A stretch of 1,727 bases of DNA, taken from NCBI RefSeq assembly GCF_003334815.1, contig NZ_QOWO01000094.1, one strand, 5' to 3'. A program made the translations under genes and the position numbers. How positions within the stretch are numbered: position 1 is the first letter of the stretch; the number at the start of each line of letters is the position of its first letter. Below the pieces are notes generated by a model that made no database searches, was not told the DNA's origin, and saw only the letters and a list, made by a program, of their open reading frames with translations. Source of the stretch: Escherichia coli. Lineage in GTDB: Bacteria > Pseudomonadota > Gammaproteobacteria > Enterobacterales > Enterobacteriaceae. Positions 1 to 1,727 of the stretch are shown piece after piece.

Positions 1-1727
1 CTATGACAACCGTGGCCGGTTAACCTCGGTGAAAGACGCACAGGGCCGTGAAACGCGGTATGAATACAACGCCGCAGGCGACCTGACTGCCGTTATCACC
101 CCGGACGGCAACCGGAGCGAGACACAGTACGATGCGTGGGGAAAGGCGGTCAGCACCACGCAGGGCGGGCTGACGCGCAGTATGGAGTACGATGCTGCCG
201 GACGTGTCATCAGCCTGACCAACGAGAACGGCAGCCACAGCGTCTTCAGTTACGATGCGCTGGACCGGCTGGTACAGCAGGGCGGCTTTGACGGGCGGAC
301 GCAACGTTATCATTATGACCTGACCGGAAAACTCACACAGAGTGAGGATGAGGGACTTGTCATCCTCTGGTACTACGATGAATCGGACCGTATCACTCAC
401 CGCACGGTGAACGGCGAACCGGCAGAGCAGTGGCAGTATGATGAGCACGGGTGGTTAACCACCCTCAGCCATACCAGTGAAGGCCACCGCGTGTCGGTCC
501 ACTACGGCTATGACGATAAAGGCCGCCTGACCGGCGAATGCCAGACGGTGGAGAACCCGGAGACGGGGGAACTGCTGTGGCAGCATGAGACCGGACATGC
601 GTACAACGAACAGGGGCTGGCAAACCGCGTCACGCCGGACAGTCTGCCGCCGGTGGAGTGGCTGACCTACGGCAGCGGCTATCTTGCGGGCATGAAGCTG
701 GGCGGGACGCCGCTGCTGGAGTTCACGCGCGACCGCCTGCACCGTGAGACGGTGCGCAGCTTCGGCAGCATGGCAGGCAGTAATGCCGCATATAAACTGA
801 CCAGCACATACACCCCCGCAGGCCAGTTACAGAGCCAGCACCTGAACAGCCTGGTGTATGACCGTGACTACGGGTGGAATGACAACGGCGACCTGGTGCG
901 CATCAGCGGCCCGCGACAGACGCGGGAATACGGCTACAGCGCCACGGGCAGGCTGGAGAGTGTGCGCACCCTCGCACCAGACCTGGACATCCGCATCCCG
1001 TATGCCACGGACCCGGCGGGCAACCGGCTGCCGGACCCGGAGCTGCACCCGGACAGTACACTCACAGTGTGGCCGGATAACCGCATCGCGGAGGATGCGC
1101 ACTATGTCTACCGCCACGATGAATACGGCAGGCTGACGGAGAAGACGGACCGCATCCCGGCGGGTGTGATACGGACGGACGACGAGCGGACCCACCACTA
1201 CCACTACGACAGCCAGCACCGCCTGGTGTTCTACACGCGGATACAGCATGGCGAGCCACTGGTCGAGAGCCGCTACCTCTACGACCCGCTGGGACGGCGA
1301 ATGGCAAAACGGGTCTGGCGGCGGGAGCGTGACCTGACGGGGTGGATGTCGCTGTCGCGTAAACCGGAGGTGACGTGGTATGGCTGGGACGGAGACAGGC
1401 TGACGACGGTGCAGACTGACACCACACGTATCCAGACGGTATACGAGCCGGGAAGCTTCACGCCGCTCATCCGGGTCGAGACAGAGAACGGCGAGCGGGA
1501 AAAAGCGCAGCGGCGCAGCCTGGCAGAGACGCTCCAGCAGGAAGGGAGTGAGAACGGCCACGGCGTGGTGTTCCCGGCTGAACTGGTGCGGCTGCTGGAC
1601 AGGCTGGAGGAAGAAATCCGGGCAGACCGCGTGAGCAGTGAAAGCCGGGCGTGGCTTGCGCAGTGCGGGCTGACGGTGGAGCAACTGGCCAGACAGGTGG
1701 AGCCGGAATACACACCGGCGCGAAAAG
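1..1727 (+). CDS. Rhs-family YD-repeat protein, internal core fragment (partial at both ends; reading phase has the first complete codon at nt 2, last complete codon ends at nt 1726). Polymorphic toxin shell/core region; the toxin tip is not in the window.
   Basis: Seen in sequence: the frame starting at nt 2 is open across the entire window (575 codons, no stop), which is why it is missing from a stop-to-stop/ATG-based ORF track. The translation begins [50 protein letters not shown]... and contains repeated xxGxxxRYxYDxxGRL(I/T) units, e.g. [79 protein letters not shown]. Established knowledge: this is the Rhs/YD-repeat signature, and the protein closely matches the E. coli Rhs core as I remember it. 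The paralog (rhsA/B/C/D-type) cannot be assigned from memory, so the symbol is left empty. Confidence 0.95.

Follow-up and report, generated by a model that had tools for sequence, protein, structure and literature searches.

A 1.7-kb DNA stretch that very probably lies inside a full-length rhsD/rhsE-subfamily Rhs gene and encodes a predicted helical insert

Results

Coding content of the window

The stretch of DNA analyzed in this work, 1,727 nt in its entirety with an overall GC content of 63%, is referred to here as the window. It is taken up by a coding sequence of the Rhs core type, in which we distinguished the following features:

2..1726, + strand: internal fragment of an Rhs core ORF, 575 complete codons (open frame, NF041261 match, 99.9% nucleotide identity)
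2..1486, + strand: YD-repeat part, assigned to the C-terminal half of the wall of the beta-cocoon, or shell (RHS_repeat, TIGR01643, YxYDxxG(R/K) motifs)
539..583, + strand: patch of rhsD-type alleles in an rhsE-type core, with rhsE-type alleles on either side, at 505 and 593, and thus at most ~87 bp long
1487..1720 (aa ~496-573), + strand: non-YD insert of ~78 aa, predicted to be a five-helix bundle (AlphaFold2, structure alignment)
827..1684, - strand: antisense ORF of 285 aa (ORF scan), judged to be a shadow ORF of the GC-rich sense frame that does not code and does not belong to the Rhs system

Frame 2 of the + strand (nt 2-1726) runs through 575 codons without a stop, while each of the remaining five frames has between 3 and 28. 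From the base composition 16.5 stops would be expected, and the probability of finding none is ~5e-8. GC content at codon positions 1, 2 and 3 is 65, 46 and 78%, respectively, which is a coding signature. In the ORF scan of the window, none of the ORFs delimited by a start and a stop spans this frame. An earlier note on this DNA had described a single open frame with neither start nor stop, and this description is correct down to the end of the translation that it quoted, which matches ours exactly. Its remark that no DPxGL-type terminus appears holds as well: DPxGL is absent from the translated window, and the shorter pattern DPxG occurs just twice, as DPAGN at aa 337 and as DPLGR at aa 428, where it belongs to a YxYDxxGR repeat.

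GC-rich sequence yields long spurious ORFs, and the minus strand of the window itself holds an open stretch of 299 codons, so we asked whether frame 2 might be open by chance or the real gene might be the 285-aa ORF on the opposite strand. This reading is already refuted. The 575 open codons exceed the longest open stretch found in 500 shuffles of the window (383 codons, mean 189), and the minus-strand stretch falls inside that range. The sense protein matches the RHS_core model at E = 0, whereas neither the 285-aa antisense ORF nor two other antisense ORFs, all with lengths inside the shuffle range, matched any NCBIfam family. Moreover, in the relatives this region is annotated solely as a sense-strand Rhs gene.

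Little else was found in the window. There were no Rfam matches at E ≤ 1, the repeats were merely short matches of low identity with nothing meaningful among them, and the one promoter-like and one terminator-like site that a scan returned are at chance level. Salmonella rhs cores have an internal promoter, P2, directly upstream of the sequence coding for PxxxDPxGL (PMC7043789). We rejected it as a candidate feature of the window, since its described position would fall downstream.

Assignment to the rhsD/rhsE subfamily

All 575 amino acids align in one stretch to positions 583-1156 of the 1261 positions of NCBIfam NF041261, RHS_core (E = 0). The score of 1261 bits is to be read against a model, the equivalog "RHS element core protein", whose curated cut-off of 2000 bits is meant for whole proteins; full-length relatives of the window score 2770 and 2777 bits, above that cut-off. 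Pfam RHS_repeat (PF05593) gave four matches with E ≤ 0.001 in addition to weaker ones, the YD-repeat model TIGR01643 matched with E = 2.5e-26, and YxYDxxG(R/K) motifs start at aa 103, 168 and 425. Multiple YD repeats are therefore combined with an end-to-end, collinear match to RHS_core, as in an Rhs core. Hill and colleagues reportedly described the Rhs core as GC-rich. The composition of the window (63% GC, 78% at third positions) against that of the flanks and tips of its relatives (25-50% GC) agrees with this, and a contrast of this kind between core and tip or surroundings was described by Jackson et al. 2009 (PMC2935791).

The DNA of the window was matched in 3,872 of 5,426 complete E. 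coli genomes (about 70%), at a median of 6 places per genome, and the top matches, 99.9% identical, carry the annotation "RHS element core protein" or "rhsD". Nucleotide identity is 97.5% to rhsD of K-12 and 99.84% to K-12 rhsE over positions 455-1727, against 78.4-78.6% to K-12 rhsA, rhsB and rhsC. High identity to rhsD and rhsE together with a divergence of ~20% from rhsA/B/C places the window in the rhsDE subfamily of the Hill nomenclature, which corresponds to "clade I" of Jackson et al. 2009 (PMC2935791). These values identify it as a piece of an rhsDE-subfamily core, and we hold with high confidence that its 1.7 kb come from the interior of a full-length rhsD/rhsE-subfamily Rhs gene of Escherichia coli (or Shigella). 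The statement in the earlier note that the window lies wholly inside an Rhs core is thus borne out by RHS_core, by RHS_repeat and by the genome matches.

Among the known members, the closest are K-12 RhsE (b1456, a pseudogene) and the intact rhsE-type protein of strain W60 (WP_197219669.1), which share 99.84-99.9% of nucleotides with the window over the common part and have the same reading frame and position in the protein (aa 579-1153). They differ from the window at positions 539 and 583, where the window has T and G, the rhsD-type alleles, and the K-12 rhsE copy is truncated and covers only window positions 455-1727. K-12 RhsD (P16919, b0497), which is paired with YbbC, has the subfamily, length and register of the window, its alleles at 539 and 583 and also its helical insert (AFDB50 match to P16919); it differs by 43 substitutions (97.5% identity), has a DUF4329 tip and sits at another chromosomal locus than rhsE, with no adjacent vgrG. 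RhsA, RhsB and RhsC of K-12 (rhsABCF subfamily) have collinear cores and the same architecture, including the region of the insert, where the alignment has one gap, but belong to a different subfamily, with about 78.5% nucleotide identity. The feature is, in short, a member of a well-known gene family, already known and ordinary.

An rhsD-type patch in an rhsE-type core

The window differs from its best E. coli matches at two positions only. T at 539 gives Cys instead of Arg, and G at 583 gives Gln (CAG) instead of His (CAC). K-12 rhsD has both of these alleles, as do many metagenome contigs. The exact haplotype was absent from the 5,426 complete E. coli genomes, searched with a 151-nt probe and in which the best full-length matches retained the two mismatches, and from GTDB representative genomes and metagenome contigs, searched with exact patterns spanning both variants. 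An exact pattern for 583G by itself had no match in the GTDB genomes. The pattern for 539T by itself was found in 39 metagenome contigs, which are 88-98.6% identical over the full window, none of them closer to it than the reference genomes. Since both variants are rhsD alleles bounded by rhsE-type alleles, the window is, judging from this pattern, a natural mosaic of paralogues and not an artefact, and the patch is consistent with gene conversion between them.

Cocoon wall and helical insert

Structures have been solved for the T6SS Rhs effectors RhsA of P. protegens (7q97), Tse5 of P. aeruginosa (8cp6), Rhs of S. bongori (8qjb-d), Rhs1/Tre23 of P. laumondii (7pq5) and Tse15 of A. baumannii (8uxt). 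Their YD-repeat cocoon aligns with the window from aa 1 to about 494-522, and the matching residues are shell residues (697-1206 of 7q97, 1280-1756 of 8qja and, for window aa 14-346, 497-826 of 8cp6). In the solved effectors the protein continues into a C-terminal aspartyl-protease plug that ends in DPxGL. They are distant from the window in sequence, and none of them has the ~80-aa helical insert that follows the YD repeats here.

This insert follows the last shell strand and is itself followed by the C-terminal plug, whose start, VHFYHCDH, falls just past the end of the window. The gap between the shell strand and the plug start ("xHYxxD") is 2 residues in 8qjc and ~25 in 8cp6, against ~80 here. 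AlphaFold2, run on an alignment of 21-30 sequences, predicted helices at window aa 496-502, 507-518, 526-540, 546-554 and 559-563, with pLDDT values of up to 93. The insert is conserved in Rhs proteins of Escherichia, Salmonella, Citrobacter, Lelliottia, Hafnia, Kluyvera and Yokenella, where Leu, Glu, Ser and Trp-Leu positions are invariant. We found no fold relatives of it in the PDB and no match in PHROGs, and the 50 matches listed from AFDB50 were all Rhs proteins, RhsD (P16919) included. In the S. bongori Rhs paper, the loop at this position (residues 1312-1315) is reported to vary in length among cores (10.1101/2024.02.26.582050); the literature searched contained no account of the helical form that it takes in enterobacteria. 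The RHS_core model includes the insert, which is a feature of the family and not special to the locus of the window. The earlier note had the frame end in core-like sequence, which stands insofar as the last ~80 aa are conserved core, except that they consist of this helical insert and not of YD repeats.

Full-length relatives and their downstream tips

The two closest E. coli loci encode Rhs proteins of 1407 and 1426 aa, in which the window takes up aa 579-1153:

L001, strain W60: yncH - vgrG - rhs - ydcD - ISAs1 elements, an rhsE-type locus
L002, isolate F95: ybbP - rhsD - ybbC, the rhsD locus

A vgrG gene lies immediately upstream of rhs at the rhsE-type locus and not at the rhsD locus. The full-length proteins have a weak PAAR-like motif at aa 3-20, DUF6531 at aa 46-123 and TIGR03696 at aa 1181-1258. 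Judging from these relatives, the N-terminal region for loading onto the T6SS, and vgrG, would fall upstream of the window. The two loci are separate chromosomal sites whose cores are identical to each other over the whole window (8001-9727 in both L001 and L002) and diverge only just past its end, and their tips are unrelated. The core therefore does not fix the tip, and a window made up of core only cannot serve to predict the effector. As a side observation on the rhsE-type locus, ydcD, the presumed immunity gene, is annotated as frameshifted in strain W60 (L001 10475-10956) downstream of an intact Rhs gene, and its 3′ end is overlapped by a small antisense gene, yncO.

To see what follows such a core, we turned to the 35 related loci whose sequence continues 3′ of the window, namely the two genome loci and 33 metagenome contigs. 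In all 35, PxxxxDPxGL ends exactly 105 codons (315 nt) past the end of the window. The boundary and the catalytic motifs (…YDPLQGRYITPDPIGL…PxxxxDPMGL) all lie within those 105 codons in the relatives. After PxxxxDPxGL the relatives turn non-homologous, with truncated copies as well as five types of tip of 122-168 aa:

Tip type 1: 168 aa, Pfam DUF4329; truncated copies also occur
Tip type 2: 149 aa, Pfam DUF6973
Tip type 3: 144 aa, Gly-rich (L007, L011, L023); no Pfam or NCBIfam match
Tip type 4: 142 aa (L022); weak match to Pfam serum-amyloid-A (SAA), E = 2.5e-4
Tip type 5: 122 aa (L029); no NCBIfam match

An NCBIfam search of the five tips and two immunity candidates returned no families. 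The core of the relatives has a GC content of ~64%, which drops to 25-40% from the tip onward, and 3′ of the tip lies a small ORF, which is ybbC, ydcD or, after the Gly-rich tip, a lipoprotein-like ORF.

The earlier note had placed a variable toxin tip and its immunity gene downstream of the window, and the relatives support this with the boundary in 35 of 35 loci, the tips and the small ORFs. It had also proposed to look for a DPxGL boundary, a GC drop and a short ORF downstream, all of which are seen in the relatives. Neither of the outcomes that it named as speaking against its view, an early stop with no boundary or a failure to align to Rhs core models, occurs in any relative. Its expectation that new biology would be found in the 3′ flank fared less well. 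The variable tips are indeed downstream in the relatives, but novelty is unlikely, as the modules DUF6973/YdcD and DUF4329/YbbC are common and known.

Discussion

Many E. coli strains, K-12 included, have rhs genes without an active T6SS. The working model that we draw for the window is built on the solved effectors and on studies of other Rhs systems. Rhs effectors form a YD-repeat beta-barrel cage around the toxin, sealed by two plugs, one N-terminal and the other a C-terminal aspartyl protease, and the cage protein sits on VgrG and is delivered by the T6SS (PMC8636562, PMC8765631). The toxin is encapsulated and split off by aspartyl autocleavage at the conserved boundary (PMC8636562), Rhs-CT and RhsI are pairs of a toxin and its cognate immunity protein (PMC3150448), and within the architecture of core plus tip recombination in the conserved core lets loci swap their tips (PMC2935791). 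By its sequence, the window encodes approximately the latter half of the YD-repeat beta-cocoon around the C-terminal toxin, together with the conserved helical insert where the cocoon meets the C-terminal plug. By analogy, the full protein probably sits on a T6SS VgrG spike, attached via its N-terminal region, the toxin would be carried inside the cocoon and cleaved off at the PxxxxDPxGL aspartyl-autoprotease site, and the producing cell would be protected by an immunity protein whose gene follows immediately downstream. We infer this delivery mechanism from homologues. The autoprotease plug, the boundary (~315 nt downstream), the tip and the immunity gene would all be situated outside the window.

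As for the tip that follows, the frequencies of known combinations are informative. The E. coli records in which a core of the window type (at least 99% identical) continues into DUF6973/ydcD number 962, against 22 for DUF4329/ybbC, which makes an rhsE-type core at the rhsD locus rare; the two modules themselves, at ≥99% identity, are present in 2,525 and 1,896 of 5,426 genomes, respectively. On these record counts, the continuation is likely to be of the rhsE type, that is, the 149-aa DUF6973 tip and then ydcD, at the vgrG-linked rhsE locus. The alternative that the window comes from the rhsD locus (ybbP-rhsD-ybbC), with the 168-aa DUF4329 tip and the immunity protein YbbC, draws on the rhsD-locus core of isolate F95, identical over the window save the mismatches at 539 and 583, and on the two distinguishing alleles of the window, which are those of K-12 rhsD. 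The DUF4329 tip is also the commonest among the fetched metagenome contigs (20/35), but those contigs were chosen by the 539T allele, which biases them toward rhsD-type cores, and with so few records of DUF4329/ybbC on a window-type core we regard an rhsD-locus origin as rather unlikely. Less probable by a good measure is a rare or undescribed pair of tip and immunity gene in the 3′ flank. At least five unrelated types of tip are attached to the core type of the window, two of them without a confident family (the 144-aa Gly-rich tip in Pfam and NCBIfam, the 122-aa tip in NCBIfam), tip exchange between loci is documented (PMC2935791), and the haplotype is unique among the collections searched. 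Nevertheless, nearly all cores that are at least 99% identical bear one of the two very common modules, and the unique haplotype differs merely by a two-SNP patch of paralogue alleles, so that such a pair would be a real surprise.

It could also be argued that the window stems not from an intact effector gene but from an rhs remnant that has decayed and lost its function, be it truncated, disrupted by an IS or left as an orphan fragment. Such remnants exist. K-12 rhsE (L043 3891-5939) is a 5′-truncated pseudogene whose remnant starts at window position 455, orphan core fragments homologous to window positions 981-1726 and 1571-1726 are found 3′ of K-12 rhsC and rhsA, and the rhsE-type locus of strain W60 has flanking ISAs1 elements and the frameshifted ydcD. 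The window, however, is open in all of its 575 codons and starts 454 nt 5′ of the point at which K-12 rhsE is truncated, and for these reasons it fits the intact genes for proteins of 1407-1426 aa and not the known remnants. We consider degradation improbable, slightly more so than an origin at the rhsD locus. The orphan fragments are K-12 ybfO (L046 7135-7880) and yibJ (L044 7208-7362), with 74-78% identity to window positions 981-1726 and 1571-1726, respectively; these core remnants suggest that the 3′ part of the window is the kind of homology region that displaced tips keep.

The architecture of the rhsD/E subfamily, the exchange of tips and the toxin-immunity logic have been described since the 1990s-2010s, and the window adds little of significance to them. 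The one mildly interesting item is the helical insert of enterobacterial Rhs proteins, which is in no solved structure. It may be a functional module, either a gate or latch for movement of the plug and release of the toxin or a docking site for a partner, as opposed to a passive expansion of a loop. This proposal should be approached cautiously, as we find it doubtful ourselves, and an undescribed toxin-immunity pair downstream is a less likely source of novelty still.

Finally, the Gly-rich tip found in the relatives deserves a brief description. Its 144 aa follow PIIRMDPLGL and include the strings GHAGLGV…GIGGGINA…GGGVGGH. The ORF that begins 11 nt past it encodes 131 aa with a lipoprotein-like signal sequence (…LLCGCS), and the pair may consist of a membrane-active toxin and a periplasmic immunity protein.
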